DNA from: Escherichia coli
GTDB taxonomy: Bacteria > Pseudomonadota > Gammaproteobacteria > Enterobacterales > Enterobacteriaceae
Direction: 5' to 3' (one strand)
Assembly: GCF_044324785.1 (NCBI RefSeq)
Contig: NZ_CP172127.1
Length of the DNA stretch: 64,000 bases
The notes under the pieces are model-generated. The model was not told the DNA's origin. It searched no databases and saw only the letters and a list, made by a program, of their open reading frames with translations. How positions within the stretch are numbered: position 1 is the stretch's first letter; each line of letters opens with the position of its first letter. Both the position numbers and the translations under genes were made by a program. Positions 47,391 to 60,766 of this stretch are shown in pieces.

Positions 47391-47652
47391 TAGTAGAAAT
47401 ATTTAAACCAGTGTAGGTTCAGGGATACGCCACAGCAAGAAATAGTTTACTTATTCCTCATTTTGTCTACTTAAAATTGACATTGAGAAAAAAATACAAA
47501 CTTACCTACATTCAGGCAAAGTGCGACAAATAGACTCGGTCGGTTTAAAGAGAACGTGTAACATAGATGCAAATCGAATAGACATTGTTGCCAGCCGTTC
47601 CAAGGTTGTGGGGCGCTGCATGGCCTGAGACGTGATAAATACAGGGAACACA

Positions 47653-50600
47653 ATGAAATTCACTGAAGATACCCGAGTAAAAATCCCCGTCATCCTCCAC
47701 CTGATACGGCTGGGCTACCACTACCTGTCCCTTAAAGAACAACGCTGGGACAAAGAAACCAATATCTTCCCTGACCTCTTCACCGCTGCGATTGGCAGAA
47801 TAAATCCCGGACTTGTGCCAGACGACATCGGACGCCTGTTAAAAGACCTCACGCTGCTTCTCGACAACGATGATCTGGGCCGCGCCTTCTTCGAAAAACT
47901 CAGTGACCGTTCCGGTATCAAACTGATCGACTTTGATAACTTCAACAACAACAGTTTCCATGTCGTCACCGAACTGACCTGCGAAAACGGTGATGAAGAA
48001 TTCCGCCCGGACATCACGCTGCTGATCAACGGCATGCCGCTAATCTTTATCGAAGTGAAAAAACCCAACAATCGGGAAGGCATCGTCGCAGAACGCAACC
48101 GCATCAACGAACGCTTTAAAAACCCCAAATTCAAACGCTTCGCCAACATCACCCAGTTCATGATCTTCTCCAATAACATGGAGTATGACGACAGCGACCC
48201 GGAGCCGATTCAAGGGGCATTCTACGCCAGCAGCTCTTACAGCAACCCGGTATTCAACTACTTCCGCGAAGAAGAACTCTTCAACCTGACCAACTTACTG
48301 AAACCGCTGTCAGAAGAAACCGAAATCGCCGTCCTGAAAGACAACAACCTGGAAGTGATCCGCACCAACCCGGAATTTCAGACCAACAAAGATCACAACC
48401 GCCCGACAAACCGCCTCTGCACCGCGCTGTTGAGCCGGGATCGGCTGGCATTTATCCTGCGCTATGCGCTGGTGTATGTAGCCGAACCGGGCGGCATCCA
48501 AAAACACATCATGCGCTACCCGCAGCTCTTCGCCACCAAAGCGATTGAGCGCAAACTGAACGCTGGCGTGAAAAAAGGCATTATCTGGCACACCCAGGGC
48601 AGTGGGAAAACCGCATTGGCATACTACAACGTGCGCTTCCTGACAGATTACTTCCAGAATCAGCAGGTGATCCCGAAATTCTACTTTATTGTCGATCGTC
48701 TTGATCTGCTCCAGCAGGCGCAGCGTGAATTCACCGCCCGTGGCTTAATCGTTCACCTTATCGACTCCCGCGAAGCCTTCACCCGCGATATCAAAGCGAC
48801 GCAGGCGCTGCACAACCACCACGGCAAAGCGGAAATCACCGTCGTCAACATCCAGAAATTCCGCGATGACCCGGATGTCGTCACCACCAAAGACTACGAC
48901 ATCAACATCCAACGCGTGTACTTCCTCGATGAAGTCCACCGCAGCTACAACCCCAAAGGGAGCTTCCTGGCGAATTTAAGCCAGTCGGACACCAACGCCA
49001 TCAAAATTGGCCTGACCGGTACGCCTCTGCTGGGCACAGACTACAACTCCCGCGACCTCTTCGGCGACTACATCCACAAATACTACTACAACGCCTCCAT
49101 TGCCGACGGCTACACGCTGCGCCTGATCCGTGAAGAGATCGCCACCAACTACCGGATGATCCTGCAACAGGCGCTAAAAGACGTAGAAGTCAGAATGGGC
49201 GATGTGGATCGCAAAGACATCTACGCCCATCCCAGTTTCGTCAAACCGATGCTGAACTACATCGTCACCGACTTTGCCAAAAGCCGGGGCGCACTGAATG
49301 ATGACACCATCGGCGGCATGGTGATTTGCGACAGCTCAGAACAGGCCAAGCAGATGTTTGAGATATTCAACACTGACTACGCCGAATCGCCCACCGCTGC
49401 CGATGACGTCGCCGAAGAAATGCCGGTATTACAGGCCGCAGAGCCTGCCGCCGTTTACCAGATCCACGCCAAAGAAACGCGGAAAATCAAACGCGCCGCC
49501 CTGATCCTGCACGACGTCGGCAGCAAGCAGGAGCGCAAAGAATGGGTGGATCAATTCAAAGCGGGCGAGATTGACCTGCTGTTCGTCTACAACATGTTGC
49601 TCACGGGCTTTGACGCCAAACGGCTAAAAAAACTCTACCTCGGGCGGGTGATCAGAAAGCACAACCTGCTCCAGGCGCTGACCCGCGTCAACCGAACCTA
49701 CAACCACTTCCGCTACGGCTATGTGGTGGACTTCGCCGACATCCGCCAGGAATTTGACGCCACCAACAAAGCCTACTTCGAAGAGCTACAGGCTGAACTG
49801 GGCGATGAAATGGAGCATTACTCCCGCCTGTTCAAATCAGCGGATGAGATTCGCGAAGAAATCGAACATATCAAAGACGTTCTGTTTAGCTTCGATACCG
49901 AAAACGCGGAAATCTTCACTGACCAGATAAACCAGATCCATGACCGGGAAACCGCGCTGGTACTGAAAAACGCGCTGGCCGACGCCCGCAGCCTGTACAA
50001 CCTGATTCGCCTCCAGGGCAACACTGAGTTTCTCCAGGCGCTGGATTTCAACAAACTCAACATCCTTTACCGCGAAGCCAGCCGCCGCCTCGACTTACTC
50101 AACCTGAAGGCGGATCTGGAACAGGGTGTTGACCTCTCCGGCCTGCTGAACCGGGCGCTGGAAGAGGTGATCTTTGAATTCCACAAAGTGGGCGAAGAAG
50201 AGCTGGTACTGGCCGACGAGCTGAAAGAGACGCTGCGCCGCACCCGCGAAGCGCTGGCCGCCAACTTCGACCAGCAGGACCCGCAGTTCGTCAGCCTGAA
50301 AGACGAACTGGAGCGTCTGTTTAAGAAAAAGAAACTCAGCGAAGTCACCCAGCAAGAAATGGTTGCGAATATCGGCACACTCAATAAAATTCATGGCCGC
50401 ATCAAAGAGCTAAACCGCCAAAATAACCTGCTGCGCCAGAAATACCGTGGCGACGTGAAATACGCGCGTACCCACAAACGCCTGCGCGAGCGCGGCGGCC
50501 TGAGCGAGCCGGAGCGTAAAATCTTCGAAGCACTGCTTGGCGTTAAGCTGGATGCGGATGAAAAAGTGCTGAATAACAGCCAGATACTGAACAACGAAAG

Positions 50601-50751
50601 CTATTTTGAGCGGCAGATTGTGTCATGTGTACTCGATCACTTTGAACAACAGCAGCACATCACCCTGAGTGCGAAAGCGGCTGGCGACATCAACCGCCTG
50701 ATTGTGGCGGAATACCTGAACGAATTTAATACCGGAGCACGTACGTGGTAG
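47653..50751 (+). CDS. hsdR: type I restriction enzyme R subunit HsdR
   Basis: N-terminal PD-(D/E)xK nuclease motif (RPDITLLINGMPLIFIEVKK), and helicase motifs GSGKT and DEVH. Start at ATG 47653 (MKFTEDT). Confidence 0.9.
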   Translation: MKFTEDTRVKIPVILHLIRLGYHYLSLKEQRWDKETNIFPDLFTAAIGRINPGLVPDDIGRLLKDLTLLLDNDDLGRAFFEKLSDRSGIKLIDFDNFNNNSFHVVTELTCENGDEEFRPDITLLINGMPLIFIEVKKPNNREGIVAERNRINERFKNPKFKRFANITQFMIFSNNMEYDDSDPEPIQGAFYASSSYSNPVFNYFREEELFNLTNLLKPLSEETEIAVLKDNNLEVIRTNPEFQTNKDHNRPTNRLCTALLSRDRLAFILRYALVYVAEPGGIQKHIMRYPQLFATKAIERKLNAGVKKGIIWHTQGSGKTALAYYNVRFLTDYFQNQQVIPKFYFIVDRLDLLQQAQREFTARGLIVHLIDSREAFTRDIKATQALHNHHGKAEITVVNIQKFRDDPDVVTTKDYDINIQRVYFLDEVHRSYNPKGSFLANLSQSDTNAIKIGLTGTPLLGTDYNSRDLFGDYIHKYYYNASIADGYTLRLIREEIATNYRMILQQALKDVEVRMGDVDRKDIYAHPSFVKPMLNYIVTDFAKSRGALNDDTIGGMVICDSSEQAKQMFEIFNTDYAESPTAADDVAEEMPVLQAAEPAAVYQIHAKETRKIKRAALILHDVGSKQERKEWVDQFKAGEIDLLFVYNMLLTGFDAKRLKKLYLGRVIRKHNLLQALTRVNRTYNHFRYGYVVDFADIRQEFDATNKAYFEELQAELGDEMEHYSRLFKSADEIREEIEHIKDVLFSFDTENAEIFTDQINQIHDRETALVLKNALADARSLYNLIRLQGNTEFLQALDFNKLNILYREASRRLDLLNLKADLEQGVDLSGLLNRALEEVIFEFHKVGEEELVLADELKETLRRTREALAANFDQQDPQFVSLKDELERLFKKKKLSEVTQQEMVANIGTLNKIHGRIKELNRQNNLLRQKYRGDVKYARTHKRLRERGGLSEPERKIFEALLGVKLDADEKVLNNSQILNNESYFERQIVSCVLDHFEQQQHITLSAKAAGDINRLIVAEYLNEFNTGARTW

Positions 50752-50909
50752 AACTGTAATTTAGAGATAAAACCAAAACCCTGATCGACAGCCTGAAAAG
50801 CATCTGTGCGAACTACGGCCTGGGCAACGACGGTAACGAATTCAAAATTATCACTCAGGCATTCCTGTACAAATTCCTGAACGACAAATTCGCCTTTGAA
50901 GCCAAAAAG

Positions 50910-52382
50910 GTGGATAAAAGCATCGCCAGCGCCGAAAAATGGGAAGTCGCGCTCAATCAGATGAGCGAAGAACAGCGGGATAAACTGCAACTGAAGATGA
51001 GCGCCGACACTGCGCGTCTGAAGCCGCATCACTTCATTCAGTATTTATACAACCGTCAAAATGAGGCCAATTTCGCCACCACCTTTGACGACACCCTGAT
51101 GGACATCGCCGCCACCAACAACGACGTCTTCGCGGTCAAAACTGACGGCGGCGCGAAAGTGGTGCTGTTTGAGCGCCTCAGCCAGTACATCGCCGACGAA
51201 TCAAGGCGCGACGACTTCTGCCGCGCCATTATCAACAAACTGGCCGATTTCAGCTTCGAGCGCATCTTCACGCAGAAATTCGACTTCTACGCCACTATCT
51301 TTGAATACCTGATCAAAGACTACAACAGCAACTCCGGCGGCAAATACGCGGAATACTATACGCCCCACGCCGTGGCGCGCATCATGGCGGAAATCCTGGT
51401 GCCGAAAGCACAACAGGGCGTAGTGCGCAACGTAAGCTGTTACGACCCGTCCGCCGGTTCCGGCACCTTACTGATGAACGTGGCGCACGCCATCGGGGAA
51501 GATCGTTGCAGCATCTTCGCGCAGGACATCTCGCAGAAATCCTCCAGCCTGCTGCGCCTGAACCTGATCCTCAACAATCTGGTGCATTCGATCCCCAACG
51601 TGATTCAGGGCAACACCATTCTGCACCCGTTCCACAAGGACGGCAGCGCGCTGAAACGCTTTGACTATATCGTCTCTAACCCGCCGTTTAAGATGGATTT
51701 CAGCGATTTCCGCGACGATTTGGATAGCAAGGAAAACCAGCAACGTTTCTTTGCCGGGATACCAAAAATCAAAGCCAAAGCCAGGGACAAAATGGAAATT
51801 TACCAGTTGTTCCTGCAACACATCATTTTCTCGCTGAAACCGGATGGTAAGGCGGCGGTCGTGGTGCCGACCGGGTTTATCACCGCGCAGTCGGGCATTG
51901 ATAAAGGGATTCGCGAACATCTGGTGAAAAACAAGATGCTGGCGGGTGTGGTTTCCATGCCGTCGAATATCTTCGCCACCACCGGCACTAACGTATCGAT
52001 CCTGTTTATTGACGCCAGCAACAAAGAGAAAGTGGTGCTGATCGACGCCTCGAATTTAGGTGAAAAGGTCAAAGACGGCAAAAACCAGAAAACGGTGCTG
52101 ACCGAAGAAGAAGAGCAGCGCATCTGCGAAGTGTTCAACAACAAGTGGAGCGAAGAGGATTTCTCGGTGGTGGTCAGCTATGACGAGATCGCCGGGAAAA
52201 ATTACTCGTTCAGCGCCGGGCAGTATTTCGATGTGAAAATTGAATACACCGATATGACGCCGGAACAGTTTGCCGCGAAGATGAACGGGTTTACGGAGAA
52301 TCTGGAGAGTTTGTTTAGCCAGTCGCGCGAGCTGGAGGTGGAGATTAAAAAGCAGATGGCGGGGCTGAATTTCCATGGTTAA
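50910..52382 (+). CDS. hsdM: type I R-M methyltransferase subunit HsdM (start codon problematic, see findings)
   Basis: AdoMet motif DPSAGSGTLL and catalytic NPPF. The reading frame is open and HsdM-N-like from 50760, but the first canonical start is GTG 50910. Confidence 0.8.
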   Translation: MDKSIASAEKWEVALNQMSEEQRDKLQLKMSADTARLKPHHFIQYLYNRQNEANFATTFDDTLMDIAATNNDVFAVKTDGGAKVVLFERLSQYIADESRRDDFCRAIINKLADFSFERIFTQKFDFYATIFEYLIKDYNSNSGGKYAEYYTPHAVARIMAEILVPKAQQGVVRNVSCYDPSAGSGTLLMNVAHAIGEDRCSIFAQDISQKSSSLLRLNLILNNLVHSIPNVIQGNTILHPFHKDGSALKRFDYIVSNPPFKMDFSDFRDDLDSKENQQRFFAGIPKIKAKARDKMEIYQLFLQHIIFSLKPDGKAAVVVPTGFITAQSGIDKGIREHLVKNKMLAGVVSMPSNIFATTGTNVSILFIDASNKEKVVLIDASNLGEKVKDGKNQKTVLTEEEEQRICEVFNNKWSEEDFSVVVSYDEIAGKNYSFSAGQYFDVKIEYTDMTPEQFAAKMNGFTENLESLFSQSRELEVEIKKQMAGLNFHG

Positions 52383-53493
52383 AACTATTGGTGATGCTTG
52401 TAATATTAGTACAGGTAAACTTGATGCAAACCAGGCTGTAAAAGGTGGTGATTATCCGTTTTTTACGTGCGCAGAGTTCCCTGAACAAATCGATCATTAT
52501 GCATTTGACGGCGATGTGGTTCTTATTGCTGGCAATAATGCAAGAGGAAACTTTCACGTAAGCAGGTATCAAGGGAAATTTAATGCTTACCAGCGAACCT
52601 ATGTGCTTACAGCCAAACATGGTTATGATATTGATTATATTTACTATGCCTTAAGACTTGAATTAAAGCGATTGCGAGAAAAATCTCAAGGCTCGCAAAC
52701 AAAGTTTCTGACAATGCCGATTTTGACCAGTATATCGCTAGGAAACCTAGTCGAGACTGAACAATCGACAGTTTCAAGAGTATTAAAAATACTGGATAAA
52801 AAAATCGCTCTCAACAATCGTATCAACGCCGAGCTGGAAGCGATGGCGAAAACACTGTATGACTACTGGTTTGTACAGTTTGATTTCCCTGATGCCAACG
52901 GAAAACCGTATAAAACCTCCGGCGGGAAGATGGTGTACAACGCCACGCTGAAACGGGAAATTCCGGCGGGGTGGAATATTAAAAATCTTGGCGATATAGC
53001 GGAACTATATCAGCCTAAGACCATTTCAGGTAACGATTTTATTGATGATGGTGAATATCTTGTATATGGAGCCAACGGTATTGTAGGAAGATTCAATAAA
53101 TATAACCATGAAGAACCTGTCGTTACAATCACCTGCCGTGGAAATACGTGCGGCAATATAAACGTCACACGACCATATTCATGGATTACAGGGAATGCAA
53201 TGGTGGTTAAGCCAAAGTTTAACTATATTTCACCTTATTATATTTATAATTTATTGTCGATATCGGAAGTTGATAAAGTCATTACTGGCTCTGCTCAACC
53301 TCAAATTACGCGAGCAAACCTAGCTCCACTTAAGGTTGTTGAACCAGCAGAGGACATTACGCAAAAATACTCAAAGTCTGTTGATGCTTTTTTTAAAAAG
53401 CATATCTCAATATTAGATGAAAATGATAATTTATTAAAACTCCGCGACTGGCTCCTCCCCCTGCTTATGAACGGACAGGTCACGGTCAAATAA
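52375..53493 (+). CDS. hsdS: type I R-M specificity subunit HsdS (two target-recognition domains)
   Basis: Its ATG overlaps the hsdM stop. It has two low-GC TRDs separated by the conserved spacer LDKKIALNNRINAELEAMAKTLYDYWFVQFDFP, and a conserved C-terminal LRDWLLPLLMNGQV. Confidence 0.85.
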   Translation: MVKTIGDACNISTGKLDANQAVKGGDYPFFTCAEFPEQIDHYAFDGDVVLIAGNNARGNFHVSRYQGKFNAYQRTYVLTAKHGYDIDYIYYALRLELKRLREKSQGSQTKFLTMPILTSISLGNLVETEQSTVSRVLKILDKKIALNNRINAELEAMAKTLYDYWFVQFDFPDANGKPYKTSGGKMVYNATLKREIPAGWNIKNLGDIAELYQPKTISGNDFIDDGEYLVYGANGIVGRFNKYNHEEPVVTITCRGNTCGNINVTRPYSWITGNAMVVKPKFNYISPYYIYNLLSISEVDKVITGSAQPQITRANLAPLKVVEPAEDITQKYSKSVDAFFKKHISILDENDNLLKLRDWLLPLLMNGQVTVK

Positions 53494-53632
53494 TCCCCGC
53501 CGTGTTTTGCGAGGCGCATTCCAGATCCACATTGCGCCGCGCTCACCGCTGTAAAACCGCTTGCCGTTCATAACCGATCGAAGTATCTTTCTCCCGCGCC
53601 TGCAAAATCAGGCGTCGGGATTAGCCTCCTGA

Positions 53633-53645
53633 AAACCGTTACAGG
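53633..53645 (+). promoter_or_regulatory. upstream target repeat (seqA-like) of the antisense RNA
   Basis: AAACCGTTACAGG; its CGTTACAGG is complementary to RNA loop nt 53739-53747. A GATTAGCCTC repeat (53619-53628) precedes it. Confidence 0.55.
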
Positions 53646-53700
53646 CGACACTTGACGCACCAGCGTCTTTTTTGTGTCGTGCGTTCGGCTACACCTCAAT

Positions 53701-53782
53701 GGCGGGCCGGGCGGGGGCGTCGCAAGACGCGCCGGTTTCCTGTAACGCCGGTAAGGCTAACCCCGTCCGGTTCCGCCACCCA
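53701..53782 (+). ncRNA. tRNA-like antisense regulatory RNA of the phage P1 C4 / P4 CI type
   Basis: Hand-folded structure. The long terminal stem pairs 53701-53716 with 53761-53777 (one bulge). A GCAA-tetraloop hairpin spans 53717-53730. A second hairpin (53731-53752) has a 12-nt loop, UUUCCUGUAACG. The 3' tail is ACCCA. The loop is complementary to both flanking repeats. Confidence 0.6.
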
Positions 53783-53813
53783 TGAGATTAGCCTCTCTAG
53801 TGGCGGACATAAT

Positions 53814-53829
53814 AAACCGTTACAGGAGA
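53814..53829 (+). promoter_or_regulatory. downstream target repeat (seqC-like) overlapping the SD of the 156-aa ORF
   Basis: CGTTACAGGAGA (53818-53829) can pair with all 12 loop nucleotides (one G-U pair). It contains AGGAG (53824-53828), 7 nt before ATG 53836. Confidence 0.55.
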
Positions 53830-53835
53830 TGCCCT

Positions 53836-54306
53836 ATGGCTACAATCCTCACCCCTGACTGCGATTTACTCGATCTGTTATCCGTTCCCTTCAATGCCAC
53901 CACGGATTTTACTGTCCTTGCCGATTACTGCACCCGCTTCGCCGAAACCCTGATAGAAACCGACGATCCCGCGCTGCGGCTGGCGCTGAGCGGACGGCTT
54001 CACGCGGCTCTTGCGCTACTGCAACCCACACTGCATGACCCCATCCCGCCGCATCTTACCGAAAGCCTGACCGTTAATACCCTTCCCGCCACACCAGAGC
54101 ACTTTATTTCCGAACCCGATTCCTTGTGCGAATACTGCCTCGCACTGCTCCAGCTTCTGCTGGAACGCCCGGCGGAGCCAAAAATGGAGCAAACCCTGAC
54201 CGGGCTGCTGTGTGAGCTGGTCTGGAATTTCACGGAAGGACTCAAATCCCCGCGCTGGCTGCGTACCGCCGACGGCGTAAAATTTATCAGTGAGGTGGCC
54301 GCATGA
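53836..54306 (+). CDS. hypothetical acidic Leu-rich protein, 156 aa, no recognisable domain
   Basis: ATG with a good SD. It starts [15 protein letters not shown]... No TM segment or signal peptide. Its stop overlaps the start of the next (broken) gene. Confidence 0.6.
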
Positions 54307-54449
54307 TGCAACAGGACTGGCATTCCACCGACATTATCGCCACGCTGAAAAAGCGGGGAACGTCTCTGGCGGCGCAGAGAAAAACTCATTGCGGACGCGC
54401 TGTAAATATCGTCAGAAATCATCTGGCCTTCAAGGTACTTTGATAGCAA
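54303..54449 (+). pseudogene. Ner/Nlp-like small DNA-binding protein, internally deleted and interrupted
   Basis: The N-terminus [24 protein letters not shown] resembles Ner/Nlp. The characteristic C-terminus (S)EI(I)WPSRYF appears only in another frame, after a stop. Confidence 0.55.
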
Positions 54450-54451
54450 AG

Positions 54452-54655
54452 GCAAGCAGGCTGGTTCAGTCCCGTGTTTCTCTTCTTGCATTTTCAGAAA
54501 TGGGAGGCTGGGAGTCTATCGAAATGGTTCGTCGATATGCTCACCTCGCACCTAATCACCTTACCGAACACGCACGGCAAATAGACTCGATCCTGAACCC
54601 ATCGGTCCCAAATTTGTCCCAGTCAAAAAATAAGGAAGGTACTAATGATGTGTAA
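54452..54655 (+). pseudogene. C-terminal ~67 codons of a lambdoid (P22-type) tyrosine integrase
   Basis: [37 protein letters not shown] contains the catalytic-Tyr box (RYAHL). There is no N-terminal or core domain upstream. It ends 14 nt before the att core. Confidence 0.75.
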
Positions 54656-54669
54656 CTTATTGATTTAAA

Positions 54670-54715
54670 TGGTGCCGATAATAGGAGTCGAACCTACGAC
54701 CTTCGCATTACGAAT
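54670..54715 (-). other. 46-nt 3' fragment of tRNA-Thr (thrW): attachment-site core, not a functional tRNA
   Basis: The reverse complement reads ATTCGTAATGCGAAGGTCGTAGGTTCGACTCCTATTATCGGCACCA, which is the anticodon loop, T-arm, acceptor 3' strand and CCA as I recall thrW. The 5' half is absent. Confidence 0.75.
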
Positions 54716-55044: not shown

Positions 55045-55716
55045 ATGGTGATTGATGCAATGTTAAGCGTTCAGATGACTCCACAAGCAAAAGTTAGCTT
55101 CGAGGAGCAATGTTTTTTTCATGCTTCATGTCTTGTTGTTGCCCCAATAAATGTTGGAGCATTCTCCTACTTTGGCGCTAATTGTATGCTCGGCGGCTTT
55201 ACGATGGGTAGATTTTGTTCAGTTGCTCCAGGAGTAAAAATTGGCCTTGGCGAGCATGAAACTGGGTATTTTTCTACGCATCCTTTTTTCTTTGGCTCAA
55301 AAAATGGTTTTAAAATCCCTGATGGTATAGGAATGCAACGCGACCTCTCTCAACAGAAGCATGGTATACCAAGAATTGGTCATGACGTATGGATAGGTGC
55401 AAATGCGGTTATCAGGCGAGGTATAACTATTGGTACTGGCGCTGTTATTGCTGCTGGCGCTATTGTCACCAAAAATGTCGATCCATATTCAATCGTAGGT
55501 GGCGTTTCTGCAAAACACCTAGGGTACAGATTTGAGGAATCAATCATCAAAGAGTTACTGGATAGCCAATGGTGGGAATATGATTTAAGCTCATTTATTG
55601 GGATTGATACAAGGACACCGACGACTTTTTTAGAGCAGTTTAATGCTGTAAAAGATAAAAAGAAGGCATCTTATAAGAGATTTACAATTCTTCCATCCGG
55701 TGAAATTGTTGAATAG
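55045..55716 (+). CDS. XAT-class hexapeptide-repeat acetyltransferase (CatB/Vat-like)
   Basis: [66 protein letters not shown] and the C-terminal [11 protein letters not shown] fit the xenobiotic acetyltransferase pattern. The start codon is uncertain (weak SD). Confidence 0.75.
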
Positions 55717-55735
55717 CGCATCCCTGCGCTATATT

Positions 55736-58105
55736 TTAAATAAACATAAGAATAAACATCAGAAGTTCTTCGTATCTGATACCATACTGATAGCCAGCAG
55801 GTTTAATAATAACCTGCCTTCCTGTGTAATATTCCTCGTCGTACCACTCTCCTGTTTCATTGTTTTTAACACTCCTAATCAATACCTCTGGAGCATAAAT
55901 ATCATCCCATTCATCATAACACCAGAACGCATAGTTATTAGGGTCAAGACCGTATTTTCTGAGAATATTACCTACAGTTTGTGCACCAACGCCGAAATGA
56001 ATCCGAGCGCCATCACTCTTGATCTTTACTGCATCTTTAAATTTAAACCTCCAGATATTTTCCTTTATTTCAAGCGCAGCAAGACGCTCTGATTCTGTTG
56101 TTTTCTCGTCAGCCTCAATACGCAATTTCAGCTCTTCATTCGACGTGTTGATACTGCCAGTACCAGCGTATACCTGTGACCATCGAAATGCTGATGTTCC
56201 GTTTGAGTTAACATTATCAACAGTTGGTTTTATAAGGCCAGAAAAATGAGTTTCAGGTGTATTAATATATGTATATGCACCTGCTGTACTACGAGTCCTT
56301 AACTCAAAGCTGTCTATATCAACACCAGTCCTACGAATTATAAGGAAGTTATTTCCTGCGGAACCAGTATCGGTTTGAGTGCTAACAGACAATCCGTTTC
56401 GTGTATCAATACGTATATTCTTCCCGTTCTCCAGCGAAGCAGAATTATGTAGATACAGCGAGTTGTCAGTGTAGAGATTGTGTTTACCTACATTGCTAAA
56501 TGTATAAGTATTGCTTGTGTTATCACTGTTCCTATGGAATTGCTGAAGAGTGTAGGCAGAAGATGCTCCGTATCCATCACAATGGAAATTTCTGCACAGC
56601 TGCAAATCGAATAACAATACGGTGTCAGCATTAATGCTCACATTATTAAAGCATGTTGCAAAGTTGGCACCATACTGTGAATTGGAATCGCCAATCTGTG
56701 CGCACACATCAAGCAAACCAAAAGTTACATTGGTAAAGTTATTTGCATCACCGGCGTCAAGAACAATCCCTTTCTTAGTCCCTGAATACCCTCTGGCAGT
56801 GCCGATCTCAACTCCCTGGAATGAACACACGCGAGCACGACTAAGCTTAAGACCAACCCATTCCAGACCATGATCGTAACCTTTTGCTGCGCGGTGAATA
56901 AACATACCATTCATGATGAGAAGGAATCTGTTATCAAGCCGTACTGGTTCAAGTTGGGCATTAATACCAACATTTGTGCATATACATTCACCATAAGCAT
57001 AACGATTCGTTTCAAATATACGATCATCAGCGTCGTAAATGCCTCGTAATGCCTTGGCGGCATCAATATTAAGCAATGTAAAATATGTCTTCTGCTTAAT
57101 TTCAAAAAAATTTGCAACATTATGCGTTGTGATATCACTCACACGCATTGATAAAATCCCCTCTTCTGGAGCGGTGCGAATGAATCCATCAAGGAACTGT
57201 TCATTATAACTTTTGGCTATCTGATAACATCCAACAGCATCAATGCGTTCGATTGTGAACTGCCAACTATCACCACAGTTAAAAGACCATCTCCAGCCGT
57301 ATTTCTGAGCGAATTCATCATATTCAACATTTGCAGGTTCAGAACAGAAAGATAAAAATCTAAATGTTGGTTTTGGCCTTAGATGGTTAATCCCGGAACC
57401 TCTTGGGGTATATATGGCATTATCTCCATTCCCACCTTTTGTTTTAACTGTAAGGTGACTTAAACCAAATTCAATATCATATTTAGTTGGTGCGGCGAAA
57501 ACAAAGCCGTCTTTTGGTGATGTGGTATTGTCAAACACAATAACCGTTTCACCCTGCCCATCACCGCACATATTTACTGGTGGTATATTAACGGGGCCAG
57601 TCAAACTATATGTTCCAGTTGGCACATATAGTTTTCCACCCTCTCCAATAGCATTTGCCGCTGCAATAAATGCCGCCGTATCATCGTTAACACCGTCACC
57701 TTTCGCCCCATAATGCTGTGGCGTAATTAACAGCATACGGTCAGAAAAAATCTCTGTCCTAAGTTGATCAGGATCGTATTTTAATACATTTGGAAAATAA
57801 AACTGCTGAGTGCCATATGCATCATATACAGCCATAGAATGGCCTTGCACGGTAACGAATTTGGCAATCTGTCCGTTATATACCGGATAACCAGCAGCGT
57901 TAATAATGATTGGTTGAGAAACAGGAACGTGAGAACCGTCTTCGTTCTCTACATAAACCGGAATCTGGTTTTCAGGATTTACCGGGTCAGTGTCAATTTT
58001 ACCGATATAAATTTTTCCATTAGCATTTGCTTTAAACGAGCGAGCTAAAGTGAATAACTGACTTGGTTGTGAAACAACAACATTGGCATTTATTGAATCT
58101 GTCAT
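55736..58105 (-). CDS. tailspike: P22 gp9-type head-binding domain + pectate-lyase-like beta-helix depolymerase + C-terminal intramolecular chaperone (peptidase S74-like) domain
   Basis: The N-terminus [18 protein letters not shown]...[26 protein letters not shown]...[13 protein letters not shown] is nearly the P22 gp9 N-domain. [19 protein letters not shown] is a beta-helix signature. The C-terminal part has NTSNEELK (Ser-x4-Lys) and a chaperone-like tail. Confidence 0.9.
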
Positions 58106-58163: not shown

Positions 58164-58186
58164 AAAAAACCCAGCCGAAGCTGGGT
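58164..58186 (-). terminator. rho-independent terminator between ant and the tailspike gene
   Basis: On the minus strand: ACCCAGC-TTCG-GCTGGGT followed by TTTTTT. Confidence 0.8.
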
Positions 58187-58204
58187 CGTTGCGTTGGTTA
58201 TCTG

Positions 58205-59083
58205 TCAGTAGTTATGTACTGAAGGAGGTAATTCTTTATTCTTAAGTCTCATCCATGCGGAAATATTCGTTGGTCCGTCTGGCTCATTAATATCAACATC
58301 TCGTGTGTGATTGATTAAAACGTCTCTCGCCATTCCGATAACATACGAGAATTCATGACCGTAGTCGTAGCATCTGCCGGAATAGTTCGATTGAATTTGT
58401 TTCAGCGCCGGATACAGTTCGCGGAATAATGCCTGTGAGCGGTTGGCATAATCCCATAACCATACAAGGCTGTTTGCTTCTTTTGCAGAAAGCTCGTTGG
58501 TTTTCTTCTCTTGTTTGCCAATGAACTCACCTTCAAGCACTACCCTGTGGATGTACTCTACGGCCAGCGGGATTTGTTCAATTGAAAGTTCATCAATGCT
58601 GTCAATACCAAAACGCTGATGAACCATATTGTATGCATCGTCATAGCGAAGTCCTTTCTTTCCTACCAGCATGTTTACTGCATCGCGTAGCGGTGTTCTT
58701 TCCTCAACAGTGGTTTTCTTTCCTTTTACATACTCGCCATGTTTGCGAATTGAAGGCAGAACTTCTGCTGTTACCCACTTGCGGAATTTGTGCGGGACTG
58801 AACCTTTATTGACTGCATCGCGGCAGCGCAGAACCAATGTATACATACCTGATTCGCTCACAATGCTTAGATTCTGCTCACCACCAAGGGTGTAACTTAA
58901 AGTTACTCCCTTTTCATCGTCATCAAGTGCAGTAAGCGCCTTGCGTGAGTTAGTCAAATCTAAAGCATCACAAACATCTTTAGCTACAAACCACGGCTCA
59001 CCGCACTTGTTGATGACGCGGATTTCACTGTCGCCGAATTTGAAGATGGTGAAATCGTTTTGTGCCTTTGCTATACTTTTCAT
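58205..59083 (-). CDS. ant: antirepressor Ant (Bro-N + KilA-C type)
   Basis: [28 protein letters not shown]...[11 protein letters not shown] is a Bro-N domain. It is immediately downstream of arc, as in P22 immI. Confidence 0.9.
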
Positions 59084-59151: not shown

Positions 59152-59313
59152 TTACGCACCAATGCGCCCTTCCTTCTTAAAGCTTTCCATTACTCGCTGA
59201 TAAATCTCAGAATTAACAGACCGACCATTTTCTTCCGCCACCTTGCGTACCAAATCCAATACTTCTTTAGGCCACCGCAAATTGAACTGTGGCATTTTGC
59301 TCATTCCTTTCAT
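59152..59313 (-). CDS. arc: Arc repressor
   Basis: MKGMSKMPQFNLRWPKEVLDLVRKVAEENGRSVNSEIYQRVMESFKKEGRIGA (53 aa). It is essentially P22 Arc as I recall it. Confidence 0.95.
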   Translation of the reverse strand: MKGMSKMPQFNLRWPKEVLDLVRKVAEENGRSVNSEIYQRVMESFKKEGRIGA

Positions 59314-59329
59314 GTTCACCTCACAATAT

Positions 59330-59346
59330 AGGTCCACGGTGGACCT
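59330..59346. promoter_or_regulatory. Mnt operator
   Basis: Perfect 17-bp palindrome AGGTCCACGGTGGACCT between arc and mnt, identical to the recalled P22 Omnt. Confidence 0.85.
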
Positions 59347-59355
59347 ATTGAGAAT

Positions 59356-59376
59356 ATAGTAGAGTGCTTCTATCAT
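59356..59376. promoter_or_regulatory. Arc operator
   Basis: ATAGTAGAGTGCTTCTATCAT is the reverse complement of ATGATAGAAGCACTCTACTAT, the recalled 21-bp P22 Arc operator. Confidence 0.85.
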
Positions 59377-59403: not shown

Positions 59404-59658
59404 ATGGCTAGAGATGATCCGCACTTTAACTTCCGTATGCCTTTGGAAGTAAGAGAAAAATTGAAATTAAGAGCCGAGGCTAACGGAAGGTCAATGAACT
59501 CTGAGTTATTACAAATCGTTCAGGATGCACTATCAAAACCATCACCGATTACAGGATATCGCGACGAAGCTGAACGCTTGGCTGATCAGCAGGCTGAGCA
59601 GTTCAAGGCTATAGTGTTTGAGACACTTAAAAAGATTTATGAAAAGGATTTGAAATGA
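59404..59658 (+). CDS. mnt: Mnt repressor
   Basis: MARDDPHFNFRMPLEVREKLKLRAEANGRSMNSELLQIVQDAL... is a ribbon-helix-helix protein close to P22 Mnt. It is divergent from arc. Confidence 0.95.
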   Translation: MARDDPHFNFRMPLEVREKLKLRAEANGRSMNSELLQIVQDALSKPSPITGYRDEAERLADQQAEQFKAIVFETLKKIYEKDLK

Positions 59659-59709: not shown

Positions 59710-60766
59710 GGCTTTGTTGAATAAATCGAACTTTTGCTGAGTTGAAGGATCAGATCACGTATCTTCCCGACAACGCAGACCGTTCCGTGGCAAAGCAAAA
59801 GTTCAAAATCACCAACTGGCCCACCTACAATAAAGCCCTCATCAACCGTGGCTCCATAACTTTCTGGCTGGATGATGAAGCTATTCAGGCCTGGTATGAG
59901 TCAGCAACACCTTCTTCACGAGGCAGACCTCAGCGCTATTCTGACCTTGCCATCACTACTGTGCTGGTCATTAAACGCGTATTCAGGCTGACCCTGCGGG
60001 CTGCGCAGGGCTTTATTGATTCCATTTTTTCTCTGATGAACGTTCCGCTACGCTGCCCGGATTACAGCTGTGTCAGCAGGCGGGCAAAGTCGGTTAATGT
60101 CAGTTTCAAAACGCCCACCCGGGGTGAAATCGCACACCTGGTAATTGATTCCACCGGGCTGAAGGTCTTCGGTGAAGGCGAGTGGAAAGTCAAAAAGCAT
60201 GGCCAGGAACGCCGCCGTATCTGGCGTAAGCTGCATCTCGCCGTTGACAGTAAAACACATGAAATCATCTGCGCTGACCTGTCGCTGAACAACGTTACGG
60301 ACTCAGAGGCCTTCCCCGGGTTAATCCGGCAAACCCACCGGAAAATCAGGTCAGCCGCCGCCGATGGCGCTTACGATACCCGGCTATGTCACGATGAACT
60401 GCGGCGTAAGAAAATCAGCGCGCTTATCCCTCCCCGAAAAGGTGCGGGTTACTGGCCCGGTGAATATGCAGACCGTAACCGTGCAGTGGCTAATCAGCGA
60501 ATGACCGGGAGTAATGCGCGGTGGAAATGGACAACAGATTACAACCGTCGCTCGATAGCGGAAACGGCGATGTACCGGGTAAAACAGCTGTTCGGGGGTT
60601 CACTGACGCTGCGTGACTACGATGGTCAGGTTGCGGAGGCTATGGCCCTGGTACGAGCGCTGAACAAAATGACGAAAGCAGGTATGCCTGAAAGCGTGCG
60701 TATTGCCTGAAAACACAACCCGCTACGGGGGAGACTTACCCGAAATCTGATTTATTCAACAAAGCC
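59710..60766 (+). mobile_element. IS903/IS102-type insertion sequence (IS5 family), 1057 bp
   Basis: Perfect 18-bp terminal inverted repeats GGCTTTGTTGAATAAATC, flanked by a 9-bp direct duplication GTGCTGAGC (59701-59709 and 60767-60775). Confidence 0.95.
59787..60710 (+). CDS. IS903-type transposase (DDE)
   Basis: A GTG start giving (M)AKQKFKITNWPTYNKALINRGS yields 307 aa, as recalled for IS903 Tnp. The track ORF begins 15 codons earlier at TTG. Confidence 0.9.
   Translation: MAKQKFKITNWPTYNKALINRGSITFWLDDEAIQAWYESATPSSRGRPQRYSDLAITTVLVIKRVFRLTLRAAQGFIDSIFSLMNVPLRCPDYSCVSRRAKSVNVSFKTPTRGEIAHLVIDSTGLKVFGEGEWKVKKHGQERRRIWRKLHLAVDSKTHEIICADLSLNNVTDSEAFPGLIRQTHRKIRSAAADGAYDTRLCHDELRRKKISALIPPRKGAGYWPGEYADRNRAVANQRMTGSNARWKWTTDYNRRSIAETAMYRVKQLFGGSLTLRDYDGQVAEAMALVRALNKMTKAGMPESVRIA

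Follow-up and report, generated by a model that had tools for sequence, protein, structure and literature searches.

A tailspike gene beside the attachment site of a P22-like prophage

A 64,000-nucleotide stretch of the Escherichia coli contig NZ_CP172127.1 (hereafter, the window) contains, toward one end, a single intact open reading frame for a protein of 789 amino acids, with a calculated mass of 87.9 kDa for the precursor. A preliminary description of this DNA had placed the gene on the wrong strand; the reading frame lies on the minus strand, with its ATG at 58105 and its TAA at 55736-55738, and the plus-strand frame over the same interval is riddled with stops. The protein matches the phrog_1171 family "tail spike protein" (E 9e-124), and complete E. 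coli genomes contain copies 96-98% identical to it under the annotation "phage tailspike protein." The gene and its surroundings present the following features:

54670..54715, minus strand: displaced 3′ 46 nt of tRNA-Thr (thrW), recognized by identity to K-12 thrW; right-hand att site and end of the prophage
55045..55716, plus strand: hexapeptide-repeat O-acetyltransferase of the XAT/CatB/Vat class (PF00132, PF14602), convergent with the tailspike gene; candidate capsule-modifying conversion gene
55713..55732, plus strand: terminator-like hairpin and T-tract (-11 kcal/mol, z = -2.5) at the 19-nt gap between the convergent tailspike and acetyltransferase genes
55736..58105, minus strand: tailspike gene
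58168..58187, minus strand: terminator-like hairpin (8-bp stem with 5 G-C pairs, then TTTTAT) located between the start of the tailspike gene and ant

Directly upstream of the tailspike gene lie ant, arc, and mnt, with a gene for a DNA-transfer protein further on, all of them intact. P22-type spike genes likewise close the late region and follow immI (mnt-arc-ant), and the hairpin at 58168..58187 matches in position the terminator that precedes gene 9 of P22. At the other end, the att fragment aligns with 100% identity to positions 31 to 76 of K-12 thrW. ARAGORN found no complete tRNA in the window, and an Rfam search of the att region returned no match, because half a tRNA cannot score. We take the gene to encode the tailspike of a P22-like prophage of the Lederbergvirus type, which is integrated at thrW and continues beyond the window.

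A P22-type anchor joined to an unrelated beta-helix

From its letters, the protein had been described as a chimera of three parts, and domain assignment with Pfam, an AF2 model, and Foldseek supports all three. On the minus strand, the gene divides as follows:

57761..58105, minus strand: tail-anchor (head-binding) domain PF09008, aa 1-115, with the YDPDQ(L) hinge at its end
57716..57760, minus strand: recombination joint and linker, aa 116-130, lying between the end of the matches to other P22-like phages and the start, at nt 392 (aa 131), of those to epsilon15-type fusion proteins
56297..57715, minus strand: right-handed parallel beta-helix, aa 131-603; receptor-binding domain and presumed depolymerase
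56144..56296, minus strand: pre-cleavage stalk segment, aa 604-654, with D630, R641, and T654; aligns with the segment before the cleavage site in T5 pb1, endoNF, and 7y5s
55739..56143, minus strand: C-terminal intramolecular chaperone of the peptidase S74 type, aa 655-789 (16.0 kDa), with the codons of S655 at 56141-56143 and K660 at 56126-56128

As the preliminary description had it, the N terminus is a P22 gp9-like head-binding domain that ends at YDPDQ (aa 110-114). The Pfam profile Head_binding (PF09008) covers aa 4-114 at profile positions 3 to 113 of 113 (E 1.4e-64; 215.8 bits against a cut-off of 24), and aa 1-115 match Sf6 gp14 (7sg7) with E 7e-61 and P22 gp9 with E 1e-49. Over the N-terminal 115 to 121 aa, identity to the solved head-binding domains of these two proteins is 73-83%. 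Similarity to P22 gp9 ends at aa 119, and DNA similarity to HK620, CUS-3, Sf6, and Kapi1 ends at nt 317-355 of the gene. The O-antigen spikes of P22 (gp9), Sf6 (gp14), and HK620 share with the window protein the head-binding domain (73-83%), the hinge, the gene position, and the general beta-helix fold, but they have no sequence similarity to it beyond aa 119-121 and carry no self-cleaving chaperone.

The centre had been called a pectate-lyase-3-type beta-helix unrelated to the P22 endorhamnosidase. Both statements hold: PF12708 (the former Pectate_lyase_3) matches aa 131-200 (E 9.6e-11; 42.3 bits against a cut-off of 27), the AF2 model folds as a right-handed parallel beta-helix with pLDDT >90 for aa 130-510, and the similarity to gp9 has stopped by then. 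The 12-residue stretch quoted at the time is present at aa 126-137. Sequence searches with aa 131-603 matched no characterized tailspike, and among phage records the central domain occurs only in the T7-like phage PSK1 (57% identity), in agreement with the earlier expectation that the receptor differs from those of known P22-like phages.

In a fold search, the best structural neighbours of the beta-helix were at most 17% identical to it, the nearest solved folds being the K5 lyase KflA (2x3h) and the mannuronan epimerase AlgE4 (2pyg). An alignment of homologues shows eleven Asp/Glu residues of the helix still conserved at 32% identity, among them D279, D289, D306, E335, D348, D358, D361, E365, E373, and D411; since the fold neighbours mix hydrolases, lyases, and an epimerase, matching these acidic residues to an established active site was not possible. 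We predict that the beta-helix binds a polysaccharide of the host surface and, most likely, also cuts it.

A C-terminal chaperone with the residues for self-cleavage

For the last ~150 residues, an S74-type chaperone with a Ser-x4-Lys dyad had been proposed. The domain assignment stands, with the length to be corrected, as the chaperone proper comprises 135 aa (655-789). In phmmer searches, the C-terminal 170-190 aa matched 7y5s (E 2.9e-20), T5 pb1 (4uw8; 1.8e-14), endoNF (3gw6; 1.5e-10), and 3gud (2.5e-8), and Foldseek of the chaperone domain returned 3gw6 and 4uw8. The Pfam model Peptidase_S74 (PF13884) scores 19.5 bits on the window protein, just under the gathering score of 22; on relatives, it reaches 42.8 bits in the 57%-identical PSK1 homologue and 40.8 in CUS-3, and it is precomputed in many family members. 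Two features of the chaperone model, a long helix (667-682) and a long beta-hairpin (736-768), fit the published description of the domain (PMC4690869). The stalk before it has a partial PF12219 match at aa 615-654 and low pLDDT in the monomer model, as expected for an inter-chain triple beta-helix.

The dyad is found in the motif SNEELK at aa 655-660, where S655 and K660 fall into the catalytic Ser/Lys columns. The catalytic-site residues of T5 pb1 are Asp1239, Arg1250, Thr1263, Ser1264, and Lys1269 (PMC4690869), and they align with D630, R641, T654, S655, and K660 of the window protein. T654, S655, and K660 are invariant in all 23 homologues that have the domain; D630 and R641 are kept in 18 of the 23 and replaced in the other 5. 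In six homologues without a chaperone domain, the C terminus lies no more than a few residues from the cleavage column. More broadly, the chaperones of K1F endoNF, T5 pb1, and the GA-1 neck appendage align with the window protein over their full length, including the preceding stalk segment. The Ser and Lys columns coincide, at a spacing of five residues, and the Asp/Arg sensor is conserved. These chaperones differ in an identity of only 20-35%, in the receptor-binding domain, and in that cleavage of the window protein is a prediction.

The head-binding domain would dock the spike trimer on the tail hub, and the chaperone would nucleate trimer folding and then leave by self-cleavage between T654 and S655. 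S655 and K660 would form the catalytic dyad, with D630 and R641, the latter contributed by the neighbouring chain, sensing correct folding. The stalk (aa 604-654) would stay on the mature protein. Cleavage is predicted to yield a mature spike of 72.0 kDa and a fragment of 16.0 kDa.

The beta-helix, stalk, and chaperone form a mobile cassette

Residues 131-789 constitute a mobile cassette that is swapped between P22-like and epsilon15-like anchors and, more distantly, T7-like ones. Strains whose O-antigens are unrelated (O77-group, O154, O21) carry it in P22-like and epsilon15-like prophages at ~96-99% identity, and the anchors of its homologues belong to PF09008, PF18668, and PF03906. A Uetakevirus (epsilon15-like) spike, WP_315794409.1 from E. 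coli TUM9803, has the same cassette (96% amino acid identity over aa 120-789) on a different anchor that is 99% identical to that of phiv142-3 and 72% identical to epsilon15 gp20. The tail spike of PSK1 likewise has the cassette, at 57% identity over about 650 aa, behind a PF03906 plus PF18668 anchor. Unlike the window tailspike, neither is accompanied by an adjacent acetyltransferase.

Among carriers, the module was found at thrW, at torS/T, at sbcB/dacD, and at a Uetakevirus site, with two to three copies in some genomes. The different insertion sites and copies indicate that the carriers acquired the module independently.

The spike tracks a rare group 2 capsule locus, not an O-antigen

We assessed co-occurrence with chimeric BLAST queries, each joining the tailspike centre to a marker gene and read as places per record. 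The kps genes lie outside the window, and the capsule link is drawn from other carrier genomes. Walking to galF-gnd in four carriers identified O77-group loci in A10 and LSC52, O154 in 2018-10-1CC, and O21 in GF4, and at least five further carriers have neither an O77-group nor an O154 wzy. An initial reading in which all carriers belonged to the O77 group was rejected, since a wzy-only control and an O154 query traced the extra places to further copies of the spike module. With at least three unrelated O-loci among them, the carriers share no O-serogroup, in contrast to the hosts of P22-, Sf6-, and HK620-type spikes, and the spike shows no homology to known O-antigen spikes in its receptor-binding part. 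The receptor is therefore most likely not an O-antigen.

Colanic acid was considered as a target because of phrog_8280, "colanic acid degradation," and was rejected. This family matches only aa 2-196, that is, the anchor and cap; moreover, the wca cluster is present in all E. coli and so cannot explain a strain-specific distribution.

The capsule loci gave a different picture. Region 1 of kps is present in 8 of 9 strains with a close copy of the module, against a background of about 31%. Region 2 of A10, a rare group 2 capsule locus, occurs in 21 of 5,426 genomes, 10 of which carry the tailspike module and 11 of which do not; conversely, 10 of 13 carrier assemblies have this region 2, which we refer to as K107-type (see below). 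Fisher's exact test on these counts, which come from public genomes that are not phylogenetically independent and include two strains with two records each, gives a P value of 1.7e-23 when assemblies are counted and 3.9e-19 when strains are. A diverged spike (about 89%) is found in two strains, and both are K107-type as well. A10, LSC52, GF4, and the ST131 strain 2822 are among the K107-type strains. The three carriers without this region 2 are AR_0085, which has a kps locus as judged from place counts only; EC17CM13, which has no group 2 kps; and Br_112. In 2018-10-1CC, a region-2-only search and inspection of the locus placed the capsule genes at 4.06 Mb and not at pheV, and in A10 kpsC is annotated as frameshifted. 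This link to the host capsule is a statistical one, and comparative genomics of this kind points to one rare group 2 (kps) capsule as the most likely receptor.

The rare locus is probably K107. Region 2 of A10 consists of two genes in a 14.26-kb cluster, one for a 1169-aa protein with a HAD-like domain and one for a 329-aa protein with alpha/beta-hydrolase and TPR parts; these two agree in length and domain positions with ORFs K107_10 and K107_9 of the kTYPr entry for K107, whose cluster spans 14.25 kb (reference NZ_JAYMNE010000021.1, 75644-89898). The name is thus assigned from the size of the cluster and the lengths and domain positions of its ORFs, rather than from an alignment with the reference. 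The K107 capsule is predicted to be a ribofuranose/Kdo-type polymer. Its large region 2 protein resembles the Bcs3/KrkA-like polymerases that have been described (PMC12887879); the N-terminal 400 aa of this polymerase gave no PDB sequence match even at E 10, so that a KrkA/GT140 relationship could not be shown. K107 itself was defined only from genomes, in 2026, and is reported to be positively associated with invasive disease (PMC13171606).

An adjacent acetyltransferase may modify the capsule

The acetyltransferase gene that converges on the tailspike gene has its best PDB matches in CatB and Vat enzymes (E 4e-26), with matches to the NCBIfam Vat and CatB models below their equivalog cut-offs. 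At three integration sites it is conserved beside the tailspike gene; 2018-10-1CC has a deletion of it. No close relative was found in coliphage records. Nor is it a homologue of NeuO, to which the match has an E of only 1e-4, and we found no NeuO-like phase-variable repeats in the gene. The acetyltransferase of the K13/K23 capsule is assigned to LbH_XAT in CDD, the same class as the prophage gene. Like NeuO in CUS-3, the enzyme probably O-acetylates the capsule in lysogens. We tentatively suggest, as a possibility short of an even chance, that tailspike and XAT acetyltransferase together act as a capsule seroconversion cassette, in which a K107 receptor of the ribofuranose/Kdo type would be cut by the depolymerase and, after lysogeny, O-acetylated to block superinfection.

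The three-part layout of the spike is not new. Its characterized precedent is the K1 endosialidase tailspike of CUS-3 (siaK1), a K1-specific P22-like prophage of E. coli RS218, which has the same two end modules: a head-binding domain 70% identical over aa 1-120, and an S74 chaperone 31% identical over aa 604-785 with the Ser/Lys motif aligned. In CUS-3, this Head_binding plus Peptidase_S74 protein is followed by neuO, and CUS-3 and the window have in common a spike gene after ant/immI, an acetyltransferase locus between spike and att site, and an association with a group 2 capsule. They differ in the catalytic centre, which is a beta-propeller sialidase in CUS-3 and a beta-helix in the window spike; in the acetyltransferase, which is NeuO with phase-variable heptanucleotide repeats in CUS-3 and an XAT/CatB-class enzyme without repeats here; and in the capsule, K1 for CUS-3 and a predicted K107-type for the window spike.

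Discussion

The reading that we favour, and regard as likely to be right overall, is that of a P22-like tailspike with a self-removing chaperone, carried in a mobile cassette, with a K107-type capsule as its receptor and a capsule-acetylating enzyme encoded next door. An O-antigen-specific spike in the manner of P22, Sf6, and HK620, its link to the capsule locus being incidental, strikes us as improbable: modules 97-99% identical are found in the O154 and O21 strains, the carriers lacking both O77-group and O154 wzy add to this, TSP3 similarity is generic at 10% identity, and the capsule association is stronger by many orders of magnitude. Shared ancestry or co-transfer of the carriers could produce such an association even if the capsule were not the receptor, and the dependence among public genomes and the duplicate records of two strains speak for it. 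We nevertheless judge this explanation very improbable, as the carriers span at least three O-types, were sampled in different countries (wild bird, chicken meat, human urine, river water), and bear the module at four insertion sites in two phage backbones; the capsule locus itself sits at different chromosomal positions, P is still 4e-19 with duplicate strains removed, and the diverged spikes go with the K107 type as well.

As to function, a beta-helix that binds without depolymerizing, or a C-terminal domain retained as a distal binding knob, is in our view unlikely. Adhesins and nonhydrolytic enzymes (PfbA, Vag8, and the AlgE4 epimerase) are indeed among the fold neighbours, but the conservation of the eleven acidic residues in distant homologues argues against mere binding. 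A retained knob would agree with the subthreshold Pfam S74 score and with the replacement of D630 and R641 in some family members; against it stand the complete set of five catalytic-site residues in the window protein, the homologues without the domain that stop at the cleavage column, and the precedent of T5, in which only the cleaved protein binds the receptor (PMC4690869). We also doubt that the gene is a remnant of a defective prophage with no function in this strain. An IS element does lie in the immI region (59742-60710), the prophage extends past the window edge, and the Br_112 orthologue has been disrupted by IS4, yet the 789-codon reading frame is intact, as are the flanking DNA-transfer, ant, arc, and mnt genes, and the frame is 96-99% conserved across independently acquired, complete-looking prophages, such as those of GF4 and 2018-10-1CC with their full P22-like gene sets.

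The architecture of the capsule-directed spike favoured here is textbook modular phage biology; the value of the finding lies in its specific receptor prediction. We know of no structure, antiserum, or phage for K107, and a spike that tracks this type across unrelated strains is a candidate typing reagent as well as a candidate depolymerase. Phage enzymes that cleave Kdo linkages in the K13, K20, and K23 capsules were described biochemically in the 1980s, with no sequences, and to our knowledge the depolymerase class for such a ribofuranose/Kdo capsule has never been tied to a sequence; the family of the window spike may supply one. The adjacent acetyltransferase, in turn, offers a testable explanation of capsule acetylation variants that are not encoded in kps. 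If the seroconversion proposal is true, prophage acetyltransferases would be a general source of K-serotype variants with identical kps loci, of which K18 and K22 are such a pair and NeuO in K1 the known precedent, and the spike would provide a ready-made specific probe for a capsule type associated with invasive disease.

Domain organization of the tailspike

The tailspike gene of the P22-like prophage is one intact ORF of 789 aa at 55736-58105. The preliminary description had these coordinates right but not the strand: the gene runs along the minus strand, from an ATG at 58105 to a TAA at 55736-55738, and the plus-strand frame is full of stops. All of the protein motifs quoted there were recovered, namely YDPDQ (aa 110-114), a 12-residue stretch (aa 126-137) and SNEELK (aa 655-660). 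A 130-codon ORF overlapping the gene's 3′ end in antisense (55700-56092, plus strand) is almost certainly a chance reading frame rather than a gene.

The proposed P22-type head-binding N-terminus is well supported. Pfam Head_binding (PF09008) covers aa 4-114 (E 1.4e-64, exceeding the curated cut-off), and in a search of solved structures, aa 1-121 matched Sf6 gp14 (E 7e-61) and P22 gp9 (E about 1e-49), with the alignments to solved P22-type anchors all ending at aa 119-121. The central domain begins with a match to PF12708, the former Pectate_lyase_3 family (aa 131-200, E 9.6e-11, likewise exceeding the curated cut-off), and is all-beta in an AlphaFold2 model of the spike. Mean pLDDT of this model is 80, rising above 90 over aa 130-510; it is low over aa 618-655, which fits a stalk formed only between chains. 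At the DNA level the central domain has no match in any phage record; at the protein level its only phage match is in the T7-like phage PSK1 (57% identity over 98%).

The C-terminus was predicted to be an intramolecular chaperone, and this reading is borne out by three proteins solved with such a domain, all matched by the last 170-190 aa: 7y5s (E 2.9e-20), T5 pb1 (4uw8; E 1.8e-14) and the K1F endosialidase endoNF (3gw6; E 1.5e-10). Two Pfam matches fell below threshold, one at aa 615-654 to the final part of the endosialidase stalk and one at aa 655-719 to Peptidase_S74 (19.5 bits against a cut-off of 22). The last 160 aa of the spike recur in hundreds of phages. In the T5 protein, whose 4UW8 structure is that of the S1264A mutant, the catalytic site consists of Ser1264, Lys1269, the preceding Thr1263, Asp1239, and Arg1250 of a neighbouring chain (PMC4690869); cleavage thus needs correct trimer folding, because Arg1250 is supplied by another chain. 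These residues align with S655, K660, T654, D630 and R641 of the spike, so that the Ser/Lys dyad suspected in SNEELK falls exactly on the T5 catalytic pair. Across 29 aligned family members, the Thr, Ser and Lys are invariant in all 23 homologues bearing the domain and the Asp and Arg are kept in 18 of the 23; the six homologues that lack the domain stop no more than a few residues from the cleavage column. Cleavage is predicted from the sequence to yield products of 72.0 kDa (aa 1-654) and 16.0 kDa (aa 655-789). The model places a long helix at 667-682 and a long beta-hairpin at 736-768 in the chaperone, in agreement with its published description as a coiled-coil with "tentacles" (PMC4690869).

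This layout is not new: the K1 endosialidase spike of the P22-like phage CUS-3 has the same Head_binding and Peptidase_S74 (40.8 bits) domains around a sialidase, with the acetyltransferase gene neuO following it. The preliminary finding is real and its interpretation supported, and the spike is of an ordinary kind: it is a P22-family spike of modular build whose self-cleaving chaperone is of a known type.

A mobile receptor-binding cassette

At least 80% of the spike gene was found, at 96-98% identity, in 11 of 5,426 complete E. coli genomes. The protein falls in a 90%-identity cluster of 300 members, and NCBI records give it no annotation beyond "phage tailspike protein." Several genomes have nt 392-2370 (aa 131-789, 96% aa identity) joined to another N-terminus of 190 aa, which shows 99% identity to Uetakevirus phiv142-3 and 72% to epsilon15 gp20; remoter homologues bear T7-type or CBA120-type anchors. 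The same cassette on different anchors identifies aa 131-789 as a mobile receptor-binding cassette. Some strains carry the module repeatedly, in different prophages (three copies in GF4, two each in 2018-10-1CC and TUM9803). NRZ14408 has one chromosomal copy with a Uetakevirus anchor and a second, with a P22-type anchor, on a separate 41,305-bp record (NZ_LT599830.1), perhaps the genome of an excised or episomal phage.

The prophage end at thrW

The spike gene is flanked in the window by the following features:

47632-50751, candidate hsdR
50910-52382, candidate hsdM
52375-53493, candidate hsdS, followed by a 174-aa ORF
54290-54655, C-terminal integrase fragment (weak PF00589 match)
54670-54715, minus, 3′ 46 nt of thrW tRNA-Thr, 100% identical to K-12
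55045-55716, plus, XAT/CatB/Vat-class hexapeptide O-acetyltransferase gene (223 codons), convergent with the spike gene at 19 nt
55713-55732, plus, terminator-like hairpin at that convergent gap (-11 kcal/mol, z = -2.5)
58168-58187, minus, terminator-like hairpin separating ant from the spike start
58205-59083, minus, ant, upstream of the spike gene
59152-59376, minus, arc, beyond ant
59404-59658, minus, mnt, beyond arc
59742-60710, plus, IS element inserted in the immI region, immediately beyond mnt, encoding a 322-aa transposase (domains DDE_Tnp_1_5 and DDE_Tnp_1)

The P22 attachment site lies in thrW. The window holds no complete tRNA, and the displaced att fragment at 54670-54715 marks the right end of a P22-like prophage integrated at thrW. 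The large ORFs to its left (47632-54655) read, from size, order and the HsdS-like translation, as a candidate type I restriction-modification set; together with the integrase fragment, they suggest that another island arrived earlier at thrW. Beyond the IS element, which may affect prophage regulation or integrity, further phage genes follow, including one for a DNA-transfer protein that extends past the window end.

Receptor of the cassette

P22-like phages usually use O-antigen as their receptor. The carriers, however, belong to unrelated O-types (O77-group in LSC52 and A10, O154 in 2018-10-1CC, O21 in GF4) despite spikes that are 97-99% identical, and neither the O77-group wzy nor the O154 wzy was found in the remaining carriers, which argues against this receptor. 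The same situation has been described for other RBP subtypes, with K-antigen proposed as one explanation (PMC10408124).

A capsule receptor agrees with the distribution of kps loci. A chimeric query with the conserved kps region 1 detected a group 2 capsule locus in eight of nine strains carrying a close module, against a background of about 31%. The association sharpens for region 2 of A10, which comprises two serotype-specific genes (1169 and 329 aa). A region-2-only search recovered it in full, at 99.7% identity or more, from exactly 21 of the 5,426 genomes, 10 of which carry the spike module: A10, LSC52, GF4, TUM9803, NRZ14408 (two records), 2018-10-1CC (two records), AVS0578 and AH21A060, the last two with diverged spikes (about 89%). 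Fisher's exact test gives P = 1.7e-23 by assembly and P = 3.9e-19 with duplicate strains removed. Among carriers, the spike occurs in four different insertion contexts, in line with independent acquisitions. There is also evidence of horizontal movement of the capsule locus itself from 2018-10-1CC, where the complete K107-type locus lies not at pheV but in an island at 4.06 Mb (NZ_AP021894.1 4046946-4075563), between aga/yra genes and a tRNA-Leu, and carries a gspM fragment from the usual kps flank. Three carriers are exceptions to the association: AR_0085, in which place counts alone indicate a kps locus and the K107-type region 2 is absent; EC17CM13, in which the kps probe detected no group 2 locus; and Br_112, whose spike is broken by IS4.

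The A10 kpsC gene is annotated as frameshifted (A10, L015 23181-25212), so that this strain may not produce its capsule. The IS4-family element of Br_112 interrupts its spike orthologue (Br_112_kylling, NZ_CP182371.1 2182767-2185372). Both look like escape from, or decay of, a phage-capsule interaction.

As to which capsule this is, the 1169-aa protein is related over aa 425-787 (E 8e-28) to Bcs3, the Hib multi-enzyme polymerase, and the 329-aa protein gave weak, sub-threshold Pfam matches to alpha/beta-hydrolase and TPR families. A 2026 K-typing catalogue lists K107_10 (1169 aa, HAD-like domain 450-655) and K107_9 (329 aa, alpha/beta-hydrolase fold 21-144, TPR region 260-324) (PMC13171606), and the kpsM-kpsF interval of A10 (14,264 bp) is close in length to the K107 reference cluster (14,255 bp). 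By these ORF lengths, domains and cluster size, rather than by sequence alignment, the A10 locus is probably K107. This structurally uncharacterised type is newly defined and shows a positive association with invasive disease; it is grouped with K-types that share a large ORF (>1,100 aa), contain a Kdo-transferase plus a ribofuranosyltransferase-phosphatase module and make Ribf/Kdo polymers, K107_10 being 28% identical to K16_8 and 25% to K74_8 (PMC13171606). The specific prediction of a single rare group 2 capsule, probably K107, as the target of the cassette is strongly supported.

A candidate capsule-modifying partner

Lying between spike and att site, the prophage acetyltransferase gene occupies the lysogenic-conversion position taken by neuO in CUS-3, gtrABC in P22 and oac in Sf6. 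It is kept beside the spike at thrW in the window, at torS/T in A10 and GF4, and at sbcB/dacD in LSC52, and is deleted in 2018-10-1CC. It has no homologue in coliphage records and no NeuO-like repeats. K13, K20 and K23 are built on a common Ribf-Kdo backbone, with O-acetylation as the only difference between them (PMC12887879). The in-locus acetyltransferase of K13/K23 belongs to the same class as the prophage gene (CDD LbH_XAT). The two K107-specific ORFs in the catalogue are not hexapeptide acetyltransferases, and acetylation variants with identical kps loci do exist, for example K18/K22 (PMC13171606). From this reasoning, rather than as a result, we infer that the prophage enzyme may O-acetylate the capsule. 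What this analysis adds is a testable prediction of a rare-capsule target, probably K107, and a candidate partner gene for capsule modification.
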